The position numbers were made by a program, and so were the translations under genes. A DNA stretch of 64,000 nucleotides from the sequence record PP434423.1; one strand, 5' to 3'. Every line of letters begins with the position of its first letter. Position 1 is the first letter of the stretch. A model generated the notes under the pieces. It did no database searches and was not told the DNA's origin. It saw nothing but the letters and a program-made list of their open reading frames with translations. Below, piece by piece: positions 8,702-38,839 of the stretch. The stretch is from Escherichia phage 236Ecol005PP.

Positions 8702-9172
8702 TTAATCATGTTTCCACACCCCATCGGTATTTGACCAAAGTCGCTGATTATCTGAACCTCGCCACAGCTTTTTGGTCGGAAGATTTTTCTCATACTTCCC
8801 ATCAATAATAACATCAACATATTTAAGCATTTCTAGTTGTTTAATATCTTCAAACTTATATCCTGTCCACAACCAAATGCTTTTATTCGGATAAAGATTT
8901 TTTACTGTTTGAACAATGCAATGAACAACATCTCGGTTATCAGGATAAAGAGGGTCACCTCCAGTTATAGTTAATCCTTCTATATAATCATTATTCAAAC
9001 ATTCAATTAATTGTTCTAGTGTTTCACCAGTGAATGGAACGCCATTTCTAGCATTCCAAGTACTACGATTATAACAACCTTCACATTTATGCAAACAACC
9101 TGTAACGAAAAGAACGACCCTGCATCCAGGGCCATTCACAAAATCGCAAGGATAAAATCTATCATAATTCAT
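8702..9172 (-). CDS. nrdG: Anaerobic ribonucleotide reductase activating protein (radical SAM)
   Basis: 156 aa; CxxxCxxC radical-SAM cluster motif (GCLHKCEGCYN); directly downstream of nrdD with 4-nt overlap. Confidence 0.9.
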   Translation of the reverse strand: MNYDRFYPCDFVNGPGCRVVLFVTGCLHKCEGCYNRSTWNARNGVPFTGETLEQLIECLNNDYIEGLTITGGDPLYPDNRDVVHCIVQTVKNLYPNKSIWLWTGYKFEDIKQLEMLKYVDVIIDGKYEKNLPTKKLWRGSDNQRLWSNTDGVWKHD

Positions 9173-10460
9173 TGGTGTTTAACCCTATGCATGATTTCTT
9201 TATTTTTGCCGAGATTAAATCCACGTTCGTTCGGATTTCCCAAATAACCACAAGTTCTTCTTATTGTGTTCATCTTTTTAGGATCAGTTTCTCCACAAAT
9301 AGAACAAACAAATCCGTTTTCAGTAGGAGTCATTTCATGAGTGCTTCCACACGTAAAACATTTATCTACTGGCATGTTAACACCAAAATAATCTAAATGT
9401 TGTGCAGCATAATCCCATACAGCCTCAAGACCTTTTAGGTTATTTTTCATATCAGGAAGTTCAACATAAGAAATGTGACCGCCTGTTGCAATGAAATGAT
9501 ACGGGGCTTCGCGAGAAATCTTTTCAAACGGAGTAATATTTTCTTCTACTGAAACGTGGAAACTGTTAGTGTACCAGCCTTTATCAGTAACATCCTTTAC
9601 ACTTCCATATTTTTCTGTATCAAGTTTACAGAAGCGATAGCAAAGGTTTTCAGCAGGAGTAGAATACAAGCTAAAAGCAAAACCGGTTCTTTCAGTCCAC
9701 TGCTTAAGACGAGCATTCATTTTAGTTAAAATTTCCTGTCCAATATCACGACCGACAAGAATATTCAATTCGTGAATACCAATGTATCCTAGGGACACTG
9801 AACTTCTACCGTTTTTAAATAACTCAATTATGTCGTCATCAGGTTTAAGACGAACCCCGAATGCACCTTCTTGGTAAAGAATAGGAGCAACAGTCGCTTT
9901 AACTCCTTTTAAGGAACTAATTCTACACATCAATGCTTCAAAACACAAATCCATTCGTTCATTGAACAATTCGGCAAATTTCTGTTCATTGAACTGTGTT
10001 CCAATATAAGAATCTAATGCAATACGAGGAAGATTCAGTGTTACAACACCAAGATTATTACGTCCATCAAGAATTTCATTACCAGTCGAATCTTTCCATA
10101 CGCCCAAGAAACTACGGCAACCCATTGGAGAAACAGGAATAGATGAACCAGTGATAGCTTTATTGTTCTTAGCTGAAATAATATCAGGATACATTCTTTT
10201 ACTTGCACACTCTAGAGCAAGCTGCTTAATATCATAGTTCGGATCGTCTTTATAAAGATTAACACCTTCTTCAACGAACATAACAAGTTTAGGGAAAATA
10301 GGAGTTATCCCATCACGACCAAGACCTTTAATACGATTTTTCAGAATTGCTTTCTGAATCATTCGTTCAGTCCAGTCAGTTCCCGTACCAAATGTAATTG
10401 TTACAAAAGGCGTTTGTCCGTTAGAGCTGAAAAGTGTATTTACTTCATCATTATATTCAG
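9169..10460 (-). CDS. nrdD: Anaerobic ribonucleotide reductase NrdD, exon 2 (C-terminal part incl. Zn-ribbon CxxC...CxxC)
   Basis: Frame continuous with exon 1 after removal of ~1 kb intron; ORF-track start at 10500 is a TTG inside intron; splice junction placed by U.G/terminal-G rule, +/- a few nt. Confidence 0.8.
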
Positions 10461-10474
10461 CATGAGTCGCAAAT

Positions 10475-10867
10475 TCATGCCCGTTTATATGAAACAACAA
10501 AATTTGGATAGTCCATAGATATGCAACGTTCTTTTATAGTGCTAGGATGAAAATTTAGCGCTTTAGCTGCTTCTATATAAGACGTATACTTAATACCGTC
10601 AACAACCACATATTCAGGAACTTTATGAATAGTAGCCTTAATACTCAAAACAAGAGGATGAGTTTCGACTTCACTTTCAGTGCAATTTAAATATTCCGCT
10701 GCTTTTTTAAAACTTCTAAAAGTTTTATTTTTAAGCTTTATCGATACTTGTTTTTTACTTTTTCGACTATTGATATTATTTTGCACATGTTCCTTAGATC
10801 TTCCGTTTTTAGCATAATATTCAGCTACAGAAGATTTTATATTGTTTTTATGAGATTCGGATAACAC
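10475..10867 (-). CDS. intron ORF, C-terminal part of homing-endonuclease-like protein (DNA-binding tail)
   Basis: 130 aa (GTG start); C-terminal IKYTSYIEAAKALNFHPSTIKERC helix-turn-helix-like motif typical of intron endonucleases; different frame from upstream ORF. Confidence 0.45.
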   Translation of the reverse strand: MLSESHKNNIKSSVAEYYAKNGRSKEHVQNNINSRKSKKQVSIKLKNKTFRSFKKAAEYLNCTESEVETHPLVLSIKATIHKVPEYVVVDGIKYTSYIEAAKALNFHPSTIKERCISMDYPNFVVSYKRA

Positions 10868-10874
10868 TTTACCC

Positions 10875-11246
10875 TTATGAGCATCTCTTAATTTTTGAAT
10901 ATGTTCCTTCAGTATCCGGATGCTTATAAAACTTTTTACCGCCTATGGATTTATTTAAACATTTTTTGCTATAAAAATATTTACGTATGACCTCTTCTTC
11001 ATGTTTTAATGCATCTTTATAACTATCAAATGTTTTTAAAATTATCCATTTAGTAGGTGTATCAGTTTTTAAGCGTTCATTTATATACTTAGATGACGTT
11101 GTGTAAGTTTTCCAGTTTGTGGGCTTGTTTTTAATTGTTCTAAATTTTTTATAACCGATATAAATGTCGCCATTAGAAAACTTAACTAAGTATGTAAATG
11201 CGTCTTTATCTTTTATTTTAGTACAACGTCTTTTTATCCATTTCAT
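10875..11246 (-). CDS. intron ORF, N-terminal part of homing-endonuclease-like protein (GIY-YIG-like)
   Basis: 123 aa; TYL-x8-YIG motif (FTYLVKFSNGDIYIGY); stops 8 nt before next ORF in another frame, suggesting a frameshifted single gene. Confidence 0.45.
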   Translation of the reverse strand: MKWIKRRCTKIKDKDAFTYLVKFSNGDIYIGYKKFRTIKNKPTNWKTYTTSSKYINERLKTDTPTKWIILKTFDSYKDALKHEEEVIRKYFYSKKCLNKSIGGKKFYKHPDTEGTYSKIKRCS

Positions 11247-11494
11247 TGTTTCACCTCGTATTCATAAGATAATCTTATTTATACAAGATGACTGCTGCAT
11301 GTCGCCATGCAGATTAGACTATATCTTCATCTTTCGATGCCGGCCGTTTCGAATAGCATTAGCTTCTATTCTACACCGCTACATTCATCACGGTTAGTCG
11401 TTAGGCATTTAGTTCAAAAGAACATTTAGCACGGGATTGTCTACTAGAGAGGTTCCCCGTTTAGACCGGTTTTACATGAGCCTGAATTAAATTA

Positions 11495-12032
11495 ACTCAT
11501 ACGCCTGGAATGCATCGTATACATCTTTTTCTGTTTTAGATTGGGCATAATTCAATGCATCTGCGATTTGCCATTTTTCCGCGTCCTCAATATGTTTCGC
11601 ATAGGTGCGTTTAACATAAGGAGAAAGTACTTTATCTACATTCGCAAAAGTCGTTCCGCCATATTGATGAGAAGCAACCTGTGCAGTAATTTGTGCCATA
11701 ATTGCAGTAGCAACGCCGATTGATTTAGGGGTTTCAATCTGTGCATTACCGAGCTTAAATCCGTTCTCAAGCATTCCTTTTAAATCTACTAAACAACAAT
11801 TAGTAAATGGAAGAGCAGGGGAATAATCAATATCGTGGAAATGGATAATTCCGCTTTCATGCGCTTTCATAATAAAAGACGGGACCATATTTTTGGCAAT
11901 GTGTTTAGACACAATACCAGCCATAAGGTCCCGTTGAGTTGGAAAAACACGAGAATCTTTATTAGCATTCTCGTTTAAAAGGTCTTTATTAGTTTTATGA
12001 ATCAATCCTTCAATTTCTTTTTCAATTGTCAT
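11495..12032 (-). CDS. nrdD: Anaerobic ribonucleotide reductase NrdD, exon 1
   Basis: 179 codons from ATG 12030-12032; in-frame stop 6 nt into intron. Confidence 0.8.
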
Positions 12033-28854: not shown

Positions 28855-29316
28855 TCATTGAGTTTTAATTACTGCTTTAGAAGCCTTTCCTGGTAAACGA
28901 CGACTGTTGATAATTGCCATCCTACACTGAAGTGACGGGTCTTTGAACTTCGCATTAGGTTTACAAACTGTAAATCCAAGCCAAAGATTTCCATCTGTGA
29001 TTTCTAAACGTCCAGGACGATATTCAACCCCATCAATAAAATCCTCGTCAATGTCAGGACGCGGAGGCATACTCAGGAATTCATTAACTTCTAAAACATG
29101 GTCTTTTATTTTGTGGAATAATTCAAAAACATATGTCTCATCAATCTCCCGCTGAATTGCACGATCAAGAAGATGCTGAGAATATTTTAGATGAAACGAT
29201 GAGACTCCTGCTGCTTTTGATGCCTCACGAATCTCATTGTTAATTTGACGAAACTCCGACTCAAAGTGACGACGGAGCTTATTTCGACGGATAAAAACTT
29301 CTGTGTTGATAGTCAT
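28855..29316 (-). CDS. regB: Endoribonuclease RegB
   Basis: 153 aa; MTINTEVFIRRNKLRRHFESEF... matches T4 RegB as recalled. Confidence 0.9.
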   Translation of the reverse strand: MTINTEVFIRRNKLRRHFESEFRQINNEIREASKAAGVSSFHLKYSQHLLDRAIQREIDETYVFELFHKIKDHVLEVNEFLSMPPRPDIDEDFIDGVEYRPGRLEITDGNLWLGFTVCKPNAKFKDPSLQCRMAIINSRRLPGKASKAVIKTQ

Positions 29317-29375
29317 GTTATTCTCCTCTTAACTGATAGAAAAATTATACTACAGTCAAGAGGAAAAGTAAACAG

Positions 29376-29654
29376 TTATTCTTTAAATCTAATCAATTTA
29401 TTCATAGACTTTGTAACTTCTGCACGAACCTCATGTAGGTTTTTAAGCTGTTCAAGACGTTGCTCATAGTAAGCAATTTCATCTTCTTCGAGACAGTCCT
29501 GCGAATCTTCTTTAAGATAACGCGCATAGTCCTGGAAAGCTTTACGGACTACTTCCTGGAAGTCATCAAGACTTTGAATTTTCTTAGGAGCAACAGATAC
29601 ACGACGAGGGGCAGTATAATACTCATAACCAAACCCTGCGCTTAATTGAGCCAT
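29376..29654 (-). CDS. small hypothetical protein
   Basis: ORF track 29376..29696 trimmed to Met-15. Confidence 0.4.
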
Positions 29655-29920
29655 TAATATTTTTCCTCTGGTTGGAACACAGCACGACAAGCCCACATAC
29701 TGGCTTCTTTGAGTTTCGTTTTAGCAATAGTTAACTGATCAAGACTTTCAGCATAATTCTTCGCGAATTCACAGTCTTCACAATTATCTAGTGCTTCCCA
29801 GAATTCATCATATAAAGCATCAAAGATAAGTCCTAAACGAACTTCAGCATCTTTGATAGCATTCACTTTACCGATTTTCTCTTCAGTATGTGGCTTATAA
29901 CCCTTAATATCTTCAATCAT
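29654..29920 (-). CDS. small hypothetical acidic protein (second slot after regB)
   Basis: ORF track; 88 aa. Confidence 0.45.
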
Positions 29921-30134
29921 ATTTTACTTCCTCACCAGTACCTAAATCATATTCAACTAAACGAATAGGTTCATGAATGCCATATCCCTGAACAGAAATT
30001 TCTGTCGTAGGATAAATTCCATCAATATCACCCATATTCCATGCTTCATTAAATTGCTGTTCGCCTGAATTACTAAACCACTCGGCGAAAGCATTTAGCA
30101 CATCTTTAGAACCTTCAATAATTATCTTTGCCAT
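29913..30134 (-). CDS. small hypothetical acidic protein
   Basis: ORF track; 73 aa. Confidence 0.45.
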   Translation of the reverse strand: MAKIIIEGSKDVLNAFAEWFSNSGEQQFNEAWNMGDIDGIYPTTEISVQGYGIHEPIRLVEYDLGTGEEVKYD

Positions 30135-30508
30135 TACAGACTCTCAGTAAAGGTACGAGCGATAACGTCGCGCTGCTGTTCCGGAGTCAGAGAGTTAAAG
30201 CGAACTGCATAACCGGATACACGGATGGTCAGCTGCGGATATTTTTCCGGATGCTTAACTGCATCTTCCAGAGTTTCACGACGCAGAACATTAACGTTCA
30301 AGTGTTGACCACCTTCAATTTTAACTGTAGGTTGTGTTTCAATTTCAATTTCACGGGCATGCAAACCGTAGAAAATTTCTGGGTCTACAAAAGAGTCCTC
30401 TTTAAAGGTTTTAGAGACAATAATTCGTGCTTGAATACCGTCTTCAAAATAAATAGTACCTTTATGTGTGCCTTCAAGAATTTGATATGCTTTCATATAA
30501 CCTCTCAA
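30134..30508 (-). CDS. Autonomous glycyl-radical cofactor (GrcA/YfiD-like)
   Basis: 124 aa; C-terminal ...[29 protein letters not shown] glycyl-radical fingerprint (RVSGY). Confidence 0.85.
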
Positions 30509-30834
30509 TTAGAAAATAAATTTATCCAAGATTGCTCTTTAATTAAAAATGGCTCAGAATCATATGCCATTAAACTTTGGGTAATTAGTCCTTTAAAAGG
30601 CCCATCAATAAATTCCATGGTAAAATATGGAATTTTATTCATTAATCTTGCATTAGGAGCAGTGCACAAAACTCTGCATCCTTTGAATACGCCTTTTTGT
30701 AATTTGTATTGCTTAGGATAAAATTCGCTCAAGACGTTGTTATTTGCCAAAATTTCAAAATGATTCACCAATTTATTTTTAATAGTTTTTGGCGAAAAAT
30801 AAAGATATTCGAAAAGTTGCGTGTCTGTCATCAT
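30505..30834 (-). CDS. hypothetical protein
   Basis: ORF track 30505..30885 trimmed to Met-18. Confidence 0.4.
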
Positions 30835-31373
30835 TGCATTCCGATTACGAAAAACTGCGGACGAGTAATACCACCAATGCAACAATTACTATTGCAACAG
30901 TGGTGCACAGTTTCAATATGAATATCGTAAATTTTATCCATATCAGGAGATTTAACAGGCTCATCAATTATATACAAAATCCGCGAAAGCGATAAACCTC
31001 TGAACTTGCTACCTCTATTACCAACAAAACTACGGACAGAATCAGTAAATAAACGGAATCGAATATCATCGCCAGAATAACGAGAAAATTCTTTTTTAAT
31101 GTGGCCCGCAGAAATTTTAGCATAAGATGAAGTATTAGAAAGAACAATAACCGTTCCACCGTCATACAACCAATTAGCAGCAAAGTTAGTCACAGCAGTT
31201 GATTTACCTGATTGTCTGCCGCCATCTAAACGAAGTGTGCAGTATTCTTTAAATAAATGCGGCGAATCAGGTACATAAAATCCACTGTTACAAATTTCTT
31301 CTACTCTAGCATCAGAATGGTGTGTAAAAGCATTCATCAGGGATAGATAAGGACCAGTTAAAAATGTTCTCAT
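30831..31373 (-). CDS. small P-loop NTPase
   Basis: ~180 aa from Met-17; Walker A DGGRQSGKST, Walker B ILYIIDEP. Confidence 0.5.
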   Translation of the reverse strand: MRTFLTGPYLSLMNAFTHHSDARVEEICNSGFYVPDSPHLFKEYCTLRLDGGRQSGKSTAVTNFAANWLYDGGTVIVLSNTSSYAKISAGHIKKEFSRYSGDDIRFRLFTDSVRSFVGNRGSKFRGLSLSRILYIIDEPVKSPDMDKIYDIHIETVHHCCNSNCCIGGITRPQFFVIGMQ

Positions 31374-31530
31374 TTTATTCTCTCTAAATTTGGGCCATTC
31401 CATGGCGCATGAATTGTCCATTTCTGTATTTACCCATTACCGCACTTGGGCTCGACCTTATTACAGGTTGGCGGGAATCCCTCATAGAATCATGAGGTCC
31501 AGGTTGTTCCCATGTTATTTGAATGTAAAT

Positions 31531-31548
31531 AGGCCTAAGTATCGGCCT
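31531..31548 (-). terminator. hairpin 3' of internal-protein gene
   Basis: AGGCC-n8-GGCCU abutting stop at 31551. Confidence 0.3.
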
Positions 31549-31550
31549 TA

Positions 31551-32147
31551 TTAATTACCACGGGCTGCATTAGCAACGGCGTAAGCGTACTGAACATTAG
31601 CGTCTTTAAACGTACCTTTAGAGGTATCTAGTTCTGCCTTAAAGCCGCCTTTAGCCATAACATCGGCAAATTCTTTACGGAAAGCCATTGCATCAAGACC
31701 TTTCCATGATGATTTGTGCTTGGCGAATTCAAGACCAGCGTAGTTGACAGCCTTAGCTAATTTATTATCAATAACCCATTTACCAGCTTTAGGTACAAAT
31801 ACCGGGCCTTTCTGTTTAGAGAATAGTTTTAAATTCCAGCGACGAAGGTCACCGTCAGCTTTAACAAAAGCTGCGTCCAAGTTACTAGCAACAACATCTT
31901 GGATATGGGCAAATTTAAGCCCATCAGCTTCAATATTTAGGTCGTTACGCCAGCGAAGTCCTTCCCAGGCGAAAGCTTTAAAGTCAGAAGCCTTTGTAGC
32001 TAAATAGCGTTCAATAGGAGCTGTTTTAGCGTCAAAGCCGTTTCCTATGCGGTCAACGCCGTTTCCTCGGTAAGTCCACTCATCTTTATTAATGCCTTTA
32101 GCCTTTTCCACAGAAGCTTCAGCGATAAATTCTTTATACGTTTTCAT
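31551..32147 (-). CDS. Internal protein (capsid-targeted), IPIII-like size
   Basis: 198 aa; N-terminal MKTYKEFIAEA capsid-targeting sequence; Lys/Ala-rich body. Confidence 0.6.
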   Translation of the reverse strand: MKTYKEFIAEASVEKAKGINKDEWTYRGNGVDRIGNGFDAKTAPIERYLATKASDFKAFAWEGLRWRNDLNIEADGLKFAHIQDVVASNLDAAFVKADGDLRRWNLKLFSKQKGPVFVPKAGKWVIDNKLAKAVNYAGLEFAKHKSSWKGLDAMAFRKEFADVMAKGGFKAELDTSKGTFKDANVQYAYAVANAARGN

Positions 32148-32186
32148 GTGTTTCCTTGTTTGTTTTGATAGAATAATTATATCATA

Positions 32187-32468
32187 TTAATACTTAAGCG
32201 TAAACTGTTTAAGCTTTACCGCCAGAAATAATTCCGAAGTTGTTAAAATCATATCCAATATCGTCACATCTACTTTAGGGCTTGCTACAACATAAGCAAT
32301 TTCACTACGTTTTGCATAGGTGTTTATTTCTCTACCATCGCCGCCTAGGAAAGAATACCCATTACGTTTTAATGAGCCAAAATCTTCGGCATCACCAACG
32401 AAAGCTTTAACTTTAAATTTGGGGCCTTTGGCATCTGCTTCAGCGATAAATTCTTGATACATTTTCAT
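32187..32468 (-). CDS. Internal protein (capsid-targeted)
   Basis: 93 aa; N-terminal MKMYQEFIAEA capsid-targeting sequence. Confidence 0.55.
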   Translation of the reverse strand: MKMYQEFIAEADAKGPKFKVKAFVGDAEDFGSLKRNGYSFLGGDGREINTYAKRSEIAYVVASPKVDVTILDMILTTSELFLAVKLKQFTLKY

Positions 32469-32474
32469 TTTTCC

Positions 32475-32888
32475 TTAGTAAATTGATTTACCATAGTATT
32501 TGTACCAAGTAGGGCGTTGAGCAATTTTTTCATCTAAGCGAGCTTGACTTATCGCAATGGACGCTTCGGACGGGACATAATTATTACGAAATTCGACAGG
32601 GATGTCGGAAATATCCTGGACAGTCGTGTCCTTGATTTTGAAACCACGTTTCAAACATTCAGCGATTAGCTCGATTTGACGTAAACGTAAAAATTCGAGT
32701 TTGTCGTAAAAGAATGTTACGTGACCTGTGCCTAAGATAAATGTTGGAGAGATTTTAAAATCCTTTACACGTTTACCGTTTTGAACATGTTTACGGACTG
32801 CACCAAATACGCGTGGTAATTCACGATACTCAGCCATAAGATGTTGGTCGGTCAATTCAGAAACAAGTGTTAAATTGATACGGGTCAT
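32475..32888 (-). CDS. denV: Endonuclease V (pyrimidine-dimer DNA glycosylase)
   Basis: 137 aa from [12 protein letters not shown]...; matches T4 DenV as recalled. Confidence 0.9.
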
Positions 32889-32915
32889 AATTTCCTCCAA
32901 GTAGTCGATGAATGT

Positions 32916-37785: not shown

Positions 37786-37862
37786 TTGGCCAGGGTGAAA
37801 GGATTCTAACCTTTAACCTGCGGTTTAGAGGACCGCTACTCTATACAATTGAGTTACACCCC
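37786..37862 (-). tRNA. tRNA-Arg (anticodon UCU), CCA encoded
   Basis: manual cloverleaf: acceptor CGGGGUG/CACCCUG, D ACUC/GAGU, anticodon stem GCGGU/ACCGC loop CCUCUAA, T-arm AAAGG-UUAGAAU-CCUUU. Confidence 0.75.
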
Positions 37863-37987
37863 GTAATTAGTTCACAGCAATACCTACTCCAACAATCAAG
37901 ATGTCTTCACACGAAATTAAGAGAAGAGTGATCAGTTCAACCACTATAATCGCGTCAAGTAGATATTAATGTGACAACTGTCACAAG

Positions 37988-38062
37988 TTTGGCGGACATG
38001 CATGGATTCGAACCATGGACCAATTGATTAACAGTCAACTGCTCTACCACTGAGCTACACAT
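37988..38062 (-). tRNA. tRNA-Asn (anticodon GUU), CCA encoded
   Basis: manual cloverleaf: acceptor GGAUGUG/CAUGUCC, D GCUC-AGUGGUA-GAGC, anticodon loop CUGUUAA, T-arm CAUGG-UUCGAAU-CCAUG. Confidence 0.75.
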
Positions 38063-38066
38063 CCAA

Positions 38067-38153
38067 ATTGGTGGGGAGTGATGGAGTCGAACCACCCGAG
38101 TCGCAATGACAATGGATTTACAGTCCACACCGCTACCTCTACGGGATAACTCC
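38067..38153 (-). tRNA. tRNA-Tyr (anticodon GUA), type II long variable arm, CCA encoded
   Basis: acceptor GGGGAGU/ACUCCCC, anticodon stem GUGGA/UCCAU loop CUGUAAA, variable arm, T-loop UUCGACU. Confidence 0.7.
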
Positions 38154-38165
38154 CCTAATTCGTAA

Positions 38166-38240
38166 TTTGGTGGCCCTGGGTGGAATTGAACCACCATCTG
38201 GCGATTATGAGTCGCTTGCTTGAACCTTCCAGCTACAGGG
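38166..38240 (-). tRNA. tRNA with CAU anticodon (Ile-lysidine type as in T4, or Met)
   Basis: acceptor GGCCCUG/CAGGGCC, anticodon loop CUCAUAA, T-arm GGUGG-UUCAAUU-CCACC. Confidence 0.7.
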
Positions 38241-38241
38241 C

Positions 38242-38317
38242 CTTGGTGCTGATTGACGGAATCGAACCGCCGACCTTCTCATTACAAGTGAGTTGCTCTA
38301 CCTACTGAGCTAAATCA
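38242..38317 (-). tRNA. tRNA-Thr (anticodon UGU)
   Basis: acceptor GCUGAUU/AAUCAGC, D GCUC-AGUAGGUA-GAGC, anticodon loop CUUGUAA, T-loop UUCGAUU; 1 nt from CAU tRNA (dimer). Confidence 0.75.
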
Positions 38318-38323
38318 GCAAAA

Positions 38324-38413
38324 ACTGGCGGAGGCGATAGGATTTGAACCTATGAGTCGCCGGAGCGACTGCCGGTTTTCAAGACCGGTGCATTAAACCA
38401 CTCTGCCACGCCT
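38324..38413 (-). tRNA. tRNA-Ser (anticodon UGA), type II
   Basis: acceptor GGAGGCG/CGCCUCC, anticodon stem CCGGU/ACCGG loop CUUGAAA, long variable arm, T-loop UUCAAAU. Confidence 0.75.
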
Positions 38414-38416
38414 CCA

Positions 38417-38489
38417 GTCTCCGCGGCAGGATTTGAACCTGCGACATTCTGCTCCCAAAGCAGACGCTCTACCAAACTGAGCTACACGG
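38417..38489 (-). tRNA. tRNA-Pro (anticodon UGG), CCA not encoded
   Basis: acceptor CUCCGUG/CGCGGAG, D GCUC-AGUUUGGUA-GAGC, anticodon loop UUUGGGA, T-loop UUCAAAU; 3 nt upstream of tRNA-Ser (dimer). Confidence 0.7.
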
Positions 38490-38499
38490 AGTAAATTAA

Positions 38500-38573
<74 letters not shown>

Positions 38574-38579
38574 GCAAAC

Positions 38580-38666
38580 TTTGGTACGAGAAGTGGGACT
38601 CGAACCCACAAGGAAATCATTCCGCAGCATTTTAAGTGCTGTGCCTTTACCAATTTGACCATTCTC
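38580..38666 (-). tRNA. tRNA-Leu (anticodon UAA), type II
   Basis: acceptor GCGAGAA/UUCUCGU, anticodon stem CAGCA/UGCUG loop CUUAAAA, long variable arm, T-arm GUGGG-UUCGAGU-CCCAC. Confidence 0.75.
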
Positions 38667-38667
38667 G

Positions 38668-38740
38668 CGCTGGGAATAAAGGACTCGAACCTTTGCATCT
38701 AGCAGTCAAAGTGCTATGCCTTATCAACTTGGCTAATTCC
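38668..38740 (-). tRNA. tRNA-Gln (anticodon UUG), CCA not encoded
   Basis: acceptor UGGGAAU/AUUCCCA, anticodon stem UAGCA/UGCUA loop CUUUGAC, T-arm AAAGG-UUCGAGU-CCUUU; 1 nt upstream of tRNA-Leu (dimer). Confidence 0.7.
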
Positions 38741-38839
38741 CAATTATTAACAAAGGCTCTCAAGCAAGAACCCTTGATGATAGAGGGTATTAATCAGTGC
38801 GATATGAGTTAATAATAACAAATAATTCTTAAAGCATAT

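Follow-up and report, generated by a model that had tools for sequence, protein, structure and literature searches.

The vs.6 gene of Escherichia phage 236Ecol005PP very probably encodes a T4-type spare part for pyruvate formate-lyase (PFL), in which an old, phage-specific 5' half is joined to a radical-bearing half copied recently from the host. The window, i.e., the whole stretch of 64,000 nucleotides analysed here (record PP434423.1), is that of a T4-like Tequatrovirus. The 3.2 kb surrounding the open reading frame (ORF) showed 95–98% identity to many Tequatrovirus genomes, with the best match found for Escherichia phage Pu-Krd-SF4 (97.9%). The gene order vs.8-vs.7-vs.6-vs.5 ... regB, with all genes on one strand, matched that of T4, the Pu-Krd-SF4 annotation and the PHROG assignments. 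The neighbors of vs.6 were located as follows:

30831–31421, minus strand: vs.8 (ORF list, PHROG, relatives)
30505–30885, minus strand: vs.7 (ORF list, PHROG, relatives)
29913–30134, minus strand: vs.5 (ORF list, PHROG, relatives)
28855–29316, minus strand: regB-like gene (ORF list, relatives)

The window phage differed from T4 in the order of ipIII, ipII and denV and in vs.5, which codes for 73 aa here and is frame-shifted, with 58 aa, in the T4 reference.

The ORF list contained a 124-aa ORF with a TTG start at 30134–30508 on the minus strand, and a sequence-only reading of this DNA had taken 124 aa as the length of the product. The ORF is real, but the start has to be moved. The TTG at 30508 overlaps the TGA stop codon of the upstream vs.7 gene (30507–30505), a Shine-Dalgarno-like GAGAGG is located at 30506–30501 ahead of an ATG at 30496, and a 363-nt coding sequence for 120 aa beginning with the same ATG is annotated in both the closest relative, Pu-Krd-SF4, and T4. 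For these reasons, the product most likely comprises 120 aa read from the ATG at 30496 rather than 124, and the four additional codons are probably not translated. The parts of the locus were assigned as follows:

30134–30496, minus strand: vs.6 coding sequence, ATG start, 120 aa plus stop codon (Pfam, PDB and PHROG matches, T4 ortholog)
30497–30508, minus strand: four extra codons of the TTG ORF, which hold GAGAGG and overlap the vs.7 stop codon
30319–30496, minus strand: phage-specific 5' half, codons 1–59, with a GC3 of 0.20 and conserved among phage homologues
30134–30318, minus strand: host-identical tract of 185 nt, encoding the structured glycyl-radical domain of 60 aa
30223–30164, minus strand: glycyl-radical fingerprint, read from the sequence and aligned to GrcA and PflB
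30223–30203, minus strand: RVSGYAV loop, read from the sequence
30214–30212, minus strand: radical glycine codon GGT, G95 of the 120-aa protein

A promoter and terminator scan of 29300–32300 gave a promoter count not above that of shuffled sequence, with no usable promoter upstream of vs.6. The tight gene overlaps suggest that vs.6 is co-transcribed with vs.8 and vs.7. Its expression would thus belong to a phage gene block, whereas grcA of the host has a regulated promoter.

The only Pfam domain detected in the product was Gly_radical (PF01228; E = 2.3e-18, 67 bits versus a cut-off of 22), which covered residues 64–105 of the 124-aa ORF and reached the end of the profile. The structure of E. 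coli GrcA (PDB 6owr) was matched with E = 5e-42 and the best NCBIfam match was the GrcA equivalog with E = 1.4e-45, in agreement with the initial claim that the product ends with the glycyl-radical fingerprint of PFL and GrcA. The NCBIfam score of 154.6 bits was under the 170-bit cut-off (E. coli GrcA itself scored 233.9) and the alignment spanned residues 20–120 only, the low score being due to the divergence of the N-terminal half. In terms of these profiles, the protein is a member of the phage Vs.6 branch of GrcA-type proteins and not a strict bacterial GrcA equivalog. PHROG 1209 was matched with E = 5.4e-63, residues 1–120 being aligned to profile positions 1–121 of 121, and by homology the ORF is an ortholog of T4 vs.6 (Y06I), an autonomous glycyl radical cofactor. 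Y06I was equated with vs.6 because the latter is the only GrcA homologue in T4. A total of 1588 phage records contained homologues of vs.6, among them records of further Straboviridae genera, of Aeromonas phages, of Tequintavirus (T5-like) and of a jumbo Yersinia phage. The radical domain showed no amino-acid change despite synonymous sites being saturated in distant phages.

T4 Vs.6 (NP_049730; 'autonomous glycyl radical cofactor GrcA' in RefSeq) was identical in 118 of 120 residues (98.3%). Its gene (NC_000866, 63557–63919) has the same length and start, occupies the same place between vs.7 and vs.5 upstream of regB and carries the same host-identical 3' tract. The window phage has T54 and R73 where T4 Vs.6 has P54 and H73, and R73 is the E. 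coli residue kept. The statement that T4 carries a homolog able to repair PFL was supported by this identity and by the rescue activity of Y06I as related in PMC8683613. The function of vs.6 as a spare part is already known, and the gene is routinely annotated by current pipelines.

The last 60 residues of Vs.6, with the RVSGYAV loop included, were 100% identical to residues 68–127 of E. coli GrcA (YfiD; PDB 6owr; TIGR04365), as expected for the proposed spare part of the GrcA/YfiD type. GrcA is likewise a stand-alone protein of ~14 kDa in which the N-terminal half is presumably disordered and the radical domain structured, and the same rescue activity has been reported for the T4 ortholog. 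The N-terminal halves differ: Vs.6 has 60 residues in this part and GrcA 67, the alignment of the two has 19 identities in 60 residues and a 6-residue gap, and the HMMER alignment starts from about residue 26 with no counterpart at the DNA level. The sequence-only reading was to be abandoned if the radical glycine was not conserved on alignment; G95 turned out to be the counterpart of G102 in GrcA and G734 in PflB.

The C-terminus of PflB was matched with E = 5e-26. In the segment that the spare part replaces, PflB 697–759 (PDB 1h16), 49 of 63 residues were identical (~78%, by a hand count on the printed alignment), and the Gly loop and its flanks were the same. Unlike the PflB domain, Vs.6 has no 10-stranded barrel or catalytic cysteines attached to it and is inactive alone. 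The small GrcA2 and GrcA3 proteins (NF008341 and NF038360; 78–80 aa) have the radical domain in common with Vs.6 (E = 6e-27 and 6e-31, below the cut-offs) but are devoid of the ~60-residue N-terminal half that Vs.6 keeps.

The comparison of vs.6 with host DNA revealed a 185-nt tract 97.8% identical to the 3' end of E. coli grcA, with four differences, all of them synonymous, and with 146 nt of uninterrupted identity (30144–30289). The tract was matched at 95–99% in all 5426 complete E. coli genomes (5426/5426), none of the matches covering 80% of the gene, and all ten of the E. coli matches listed spanned nucleotides 191–375 of it. For the 5' half of vs.6, pairwise alignment and sliding identity gave no DNA-level alignment to grcA. 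The similarity to grcA ended abruptly upstream of the EGGQH codons on one side and right after the stop codon on the other. The GC content climbed from about 0.3 to 0.52 in the tract, and GC3 rose from 0.20 in the 5' half to 0.41 in the 3' half. The extent of the tract corresponds to that of the structured radical domain delimited in PMC8683613 (GrcA 68–127).

The divergence of the tract from E. coli was very low, with a dS of 0.048 for the window phage and 0 for T4 (zero synonymous differences in 57 codons); for scale, the same segment gave a dS of 0.38 between E. coli and Citrobacter and 1.13 between E. coli and Salmonella. Within a 168-nt core, identity to E. coli grcA was 98.8% for the window phage and 99.4% for T4, and identity to Citrobacter and Trabulsiella grcA was about 91%. 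The window tract was 82% identical to Salmonella grcA over the last 180 nt. The identity matrix was anchored on the EGGQH motif, because the Enterobacter phage PG7 protein is 3 residues shorter. Judged from these comparisons, the donor of the tract is specifically Escherichia. The protein sequence does not force such identity of DNA, since the same 60 residues are specified in Cronobacter phage leB by DNA that departs from E. coli at 29 nucleotides, and E. coli phage JSE reaches no more than 72% identity in the tract segment. Set against other enterobacteria, the 3' half of E. coli grcA did not stand out from the 5' half of the same gene, so the transfer went from the host to the phage.

A tract of at least 95% identity was present in 638 phage records, and nearly all of the 40 matches listed started at grcA nucleotides 199–202. 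Given these 638 records, it is unlikely that the tract would be missing from independently sequenced phage DNA. At the DNA level, vs.6 is a host/phage mosaic composed of an old 5' half and a 3' half copied recently from the host. The copying probably proceeded by homologous recombination and probably took place more than once in T-even phages. No paper describing the mosaic at the DNA level was found, in a search that did not reach Wagner 2001 or the T4 genome review (PMC150520). The mosaic is the only feature of the gene with some novelty, and the identity to yfiD may already have been noticed in Wagner 2001, in the T4 genome review or in the YfiD NMR paper (PMC6754787).

The age of the tract was evaluated by comparing T4 with a Mosigvirus. 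The dS between the two was 0.10 in the vs.6 tract and 0.45 in the vs.6 5' half, with 1.11 and 1.49 in the flanking vs.7 and vs.5 genes, respectively; the synonymous differences behind the vs.6 values are small counts (4 of 43 in the tract and 12.5 of 37 in the 5' half). In the 168-nt core, the differences from E. coli that each phage showed were private to it. The low dS of the tract and these private differences indicate that it is much younger than the split between Tequatrovirus and Mosigvirus.

A second type of tract was found in Klebsiella phage KP179 (Jiaodavirus). Its 5' half is homologous to that of T4 (73% nucleotide identity), and its 3' half, with a GC3 of 0.57, was closest to Klebsiella-type grcA (92.9% identity, dS 0.37), the dS being 0.83 to E. 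coli and 0.84 to T4. KP179 has LLDAVEH, as do the Klebsiella, Raoultella and Salmonella GrcA proteins in the set, where E. coli has LEDAVKH. The Klebsiella-type grcA sequences were metagenome loci in a bacterial chromosomal context, as the genome scan gave only Klebsiella sp. representatives. As KP179 joins a Klebsiella-like tract to a 5' half homologous to that of T4, host DNA must have replaced the phage sequence at least twice, which suggests that the radical domain was replaced repeatedly. It may even be that T-even phages recurrently overwrite the 185-nt tract from their current host, with E. coli-type sequence in Tequatrovirus and Mosigvirus and Klebsiella-type sequence in Jiaodavirus, and this extension is put forward tentatively on the basis of the compared sequences.

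Alternatively, grcA could have been captured once in an ancestor and then spread among T-even phages by phage–phage recombination with no repeated conversion from the host, a possible but somewhat doubtful course of events. The start of nearly all listed matches at grcA nucleotides 199–202 suggests a shared 5' junction, and near the 3' junction the three E. coli phages compared have AGT in common at codon 119, where the host has AGC. Moreover, the 5' half of vs.6, with a dS lower than that of the flanks (0.45 versus 1.1–1.5), fits an exchange of the whole gene between phages. The tract is, however, still less diverged than this 5' half (4/43 versus 12.5/37), and the private differences are arranged like a star around the host sequence. 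The Klebsiella-like tract of KP179 also requires a second host-derived event, which a single capture does not provide.

Spare-part proteins have been validated in two cases only, E. coli YfiD and T4 Y06I (PMC8683613), and among the classes of glycyl radical enzymes spare parts have been identified for formate lyases only (2026 review, PMC13450708). As summarized in PMC8683613, which cites Wagner et al. 2001 (pmid 11444864) for this, YfiD and T4 Y06I restore PFL cleaved by O2 in vitro, a rescue for which PFL-AE installs the radical and a complex with the cleaved PFL is formed. Residues 61–127 of YfiD are the structured part, which docks into PFL and bears the radical, and the disordered residues 1–60 aid cPFL binding and raise activation about fourfold (PMC8683613).

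Applied to the window phage, oxygen would cleave activated host PflB at Gly734, and the 14-kDa phage protein would bind the damaged PflB in such a way that its C-terminal domain replaces the lost glycyl-radical domain. The host PFL-AE (PflA) would then generate a radical anew at Gly95, within the RVSGYAV loop, and PFL turnover (pyruvate + CoA to acetyl-CoA + formate) could restart without remaking the 85-kDa subunit. T4, as in T-even infection, shuts off host gene expression. This shut-off would block new synthesis of host grcA, which could explain why the phage keeps its own copy. The expected gain for the phage would be fermentative ATP and an acetyl-CoA supply that go on as oxygen fluctuates. 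Because the N-terminal half is diverged and this half matters for cPFL binding in YfiD, the affinity or the regulation of Vs.6 may differ from that of GrcA. In the searchable literature, no phenotype was found described for a vs.6 mutant in vivo.

Alternatively, Vs.6 might not chiefly repair cleaved PFL but modulate host PFL in another way, by donating a radical domain to inactive full-length PFL, by acting on TdcE or by competing for PFL-AE, with the diverged, phage-specific N-terminal half altering the recognition of partners or abolishing the 'safety' control proposed for YfiD. The corresponding half of YfiD governs cPFL binding and the efficiency of activation, only 19 of 60 residues of this half are shared with GrcA and Vs.6 scores under the GrcA equivalog cut-off. 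Furthermore, according to the title of Kammel & Sawers 2022, inactive full-length PFL is restored in vivo by GrcA, and vs.6 matched two further places per E. coli genome, presumably pflB and tdcE. Such a role is nevertheless improbable, as T4 Y06I is reported to be YfiD-like in the cPFL rescue assay, and the retention of a radical domain identical to GrcA's speaks for docking at the same site.

The anaerobic RNR genes of the window were located as follows:

8702–9172, minus strand: nrdG, class III RNR activase (Pfam Fer4_12, E = 1.8e-48, and Radical_SAM; annotation of relatives)
11487–12032 and 9169–10500, minus strand: nrdD, two exon ORFs (Pfam NRDD, E = 1e-40 and 3e-122; Gly_radical)
11295–11530: group I intron splitting nrdD (Rfam Intron_gpI, 70.9 bits)

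The intron, which carries an ORF for a GIY-YIG/NUMOD1 homing endonuclease, was missed by the whole-window Rfam search at the gathering threshold and found by a permissive search of 10300–11700. NrdG was the only one of nine scanned window ORFs with a Radical_SAM match. Vs.6 had been described as encoded alongside these genes. NrdD and NrdG are indeed present in the window and on the same strand, but they form a different gene block 18–21 kb away.

Another reading considered was that Vs.6 is (also) a spare part for the phage NrdD: Vs.6 would dock on NrdD cleaved by O2 and be activated by NrdG so that dNTP synthesis is restored. Both proteins are phage-encoded, contain the Pfam Gly_radical domain and have G-Y at the radical site, and an early phage genomics paper guessed a role in nucleotide metabolism from the Pfam match alone (PMC1524935). 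Reviews also deem spare parts for other glycyl radical enzymes conceivable. Of the alignments proposed at the outset, that with GrcA gave the match described above, whereas BLASTP of Vs.6 against the NrdD exon-2 product gave no significant similarity to the C-terminal loop, the best hit (E = 1.7) being in the wrong register with the loop unaligned. The loop of Vs.6 is RVSGYAV and that of NrdD, activated by NrdG, is RRTCGYLG. Vs.6 is cysteine-free, whereas the NrdD C-terminus (CFTCGS...CSICG...RRTCGYLG) has a four-cysteine cluster and a loop cysteine. The radical domain of Vs.6 copies that of PFL instead (100% identity to GrcA, about 78% to PflB). Vs.6 thus lacked every sequence feature looked for in a NrdD mimic. 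In addition, PFL-AE takes an RVSGYAV peptide and rejects RVCGYLG, and class III RNRs are described as structurally distinct from all PFL-like enzymes (PMC13450708). No report of the activation of Vs.6 by NrdG or of restored NrdD activity was found in the literature. As the main function, direct NrdD rescue was rejected in the absence of a significant BLASTP match to the NrdD C-terminal exon product; from the sequences and the reported Gly-loop specificity of PFL-AE, such rescue is unlikely, and a part for Vs.6 as a NrdD spare seems very remote.

A connection between Vs.6 and NrdD plausibly runs through formate, which PFL makes and formate-dependent class III RNRs consume. The formate-dependent class III RNR has been discussed as a possible consumer of formate in PMC13450708, a review that cites Mulliez et al. 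1995 for formate as the hydrogen donor. Formate produced by the rescued PFL, as the reductant of formate-dependent class III RNRs, would be a further gain that indirectly aids the phage NrdD/NrdG. The anaerobic toolkit that the sequence-only reading had recognized in these genes is probably coherent by way of formate supply rather than NrdD repair.

That vs.6 is a piece of host DNA without a function, simply carried along in the phage genome, as its half of host-identical DNA might indicate, is scarcely credible in view of an intact ORF with a ribosome-binding site and translational coupling to its neighbors, full-length homologues throughout the 1588 phage records (Straboviridae, T5-like and jumbo phages), a radical domain without amino-acid changes at a dS of up to about 1, and the in vitro activity related for the T4 protein.

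As a gene, vs.6 is a textbook phage spare part for a glycyl radical enzyme and adds nothing new in itself. It illustrates how a virulent phage sustains the fermentative metabolism of its host under fluctuating oxygen, a matter of interest for T-even phages living in the gut and for phage therapy where conditions are microaerobic. The mosaic could be of modest importance: although the phage is virulent and degrades the DNA of its host, it carries 146–185 nt of essentially host-identical sequence, and the host type of this sequence is not the same in E. coli and Klebsiella phages. If the recurrent conversion of the tract from the host is true, the spare part would always match the local PFL/GrcA allele, which would mean that the spare part is very closely co-adapted with the host enzyme, and vs.6 would be a natural reporter, i.e., a measurable locus for the rates of host-to-phage recombination.

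Directly 3' of vs.6, the phage gene for a GrcA-type glycyl radical spare part, lies vs.5, overlapped by an alternative reading frame:
29913..30134, minus strand, vs.5, 73 aa
29957..30094, alternative ORF, in the frame matching T4 reference vs.5 after about residue 17

The vs.5 of a Mosigvirus is 74 aa long, close to the 73 aa found here, whereas that of the T4 reference (comparison locus L003, 2863..3039) has only 58 aa and changes after about residue 17 to the frame of the alternative ORF. By this switch, the T4 reference allele looks frameshifted relative to its relatives. Differences from T4 were also observed around vs.8, where the following genes were located, the last three named by eye and from the annotation of relatives:
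30831..31421, minus strand, vs.8-like protein (PHROG 1488)
31551..32147, minus strand, ipIII-like ORF
32187..32468, minus strand, ipII-like ORF
32475..32900, minus strand, denV-like ORF

In the window, vs.8 is adjoined by the ipIII-like, ipII-like and denV-like ORFs in that order, so that the arrangement at 31551..32900 (minus strand) is unlike that of the T4 reference, in which ipIII, ipII and denV are followed by vs.8. The vs.8-like protein contains a GKS P-loop-like motif and weakly matched phrog_2, in the ATPase region of large terminases (E = 8e-6), and a Pfam search with this protein gave no matches.

The nrdD gene (9169..12032, minus strand) is split by a group I intron (Rfam match at 11295..11530, 70.9 bits), which was undetected by Rfam at the gathering threshold over the whole window. 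The homing-endonuclease reading frame within this intron was found as two pieces in different frames, and looks like a frameshifted gene of the I-TevII type:
10875..11246, minus strand, GIY-YIG piece
10475..10867, minus strand, NUMOD1 piece

A cluster of 10 tRNA genes (37787..38742, minus strand) comprises those for Arg, Asn, Tyr, Met/Ile-CAT, Thr, Ser, Pro, Gly, Leu and Gln; relative to T4, which has eight, the Asn and Tyr genes would be extra.

Homologues of vs.6 were identified in other phages. In Klebsiella phage KP179 (Jiaodavirus; L004, 581..760), the 3' half of the gene is GC-rich (GC3 of 0.57), nearest to Klebsiella-type grcA (up to 92.9% identity with loci L094–L097) and encodes the LLDAVEH variant also found in the Klebsiella, Raoultella and Salmonella GrcA sequences compared. 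These features mark it as an independent and older host-derived tract. The homologues of Escherichia phage JSE (Krischvirus; L012, 392..808) and Salmonella phage Spc35 (T5-like; L011, 401..769) carry 9–12 amino-acid changes in the radical domain and no host-identical DNA (72–77% identity), so that an exact match to host GrcA is not needed for function. A full-length grcA copy on the 276-kb plasmid unnamed4 of Klebsiella sp. WOUb02 (L034) shows that grcA is mobile between bacteria too.
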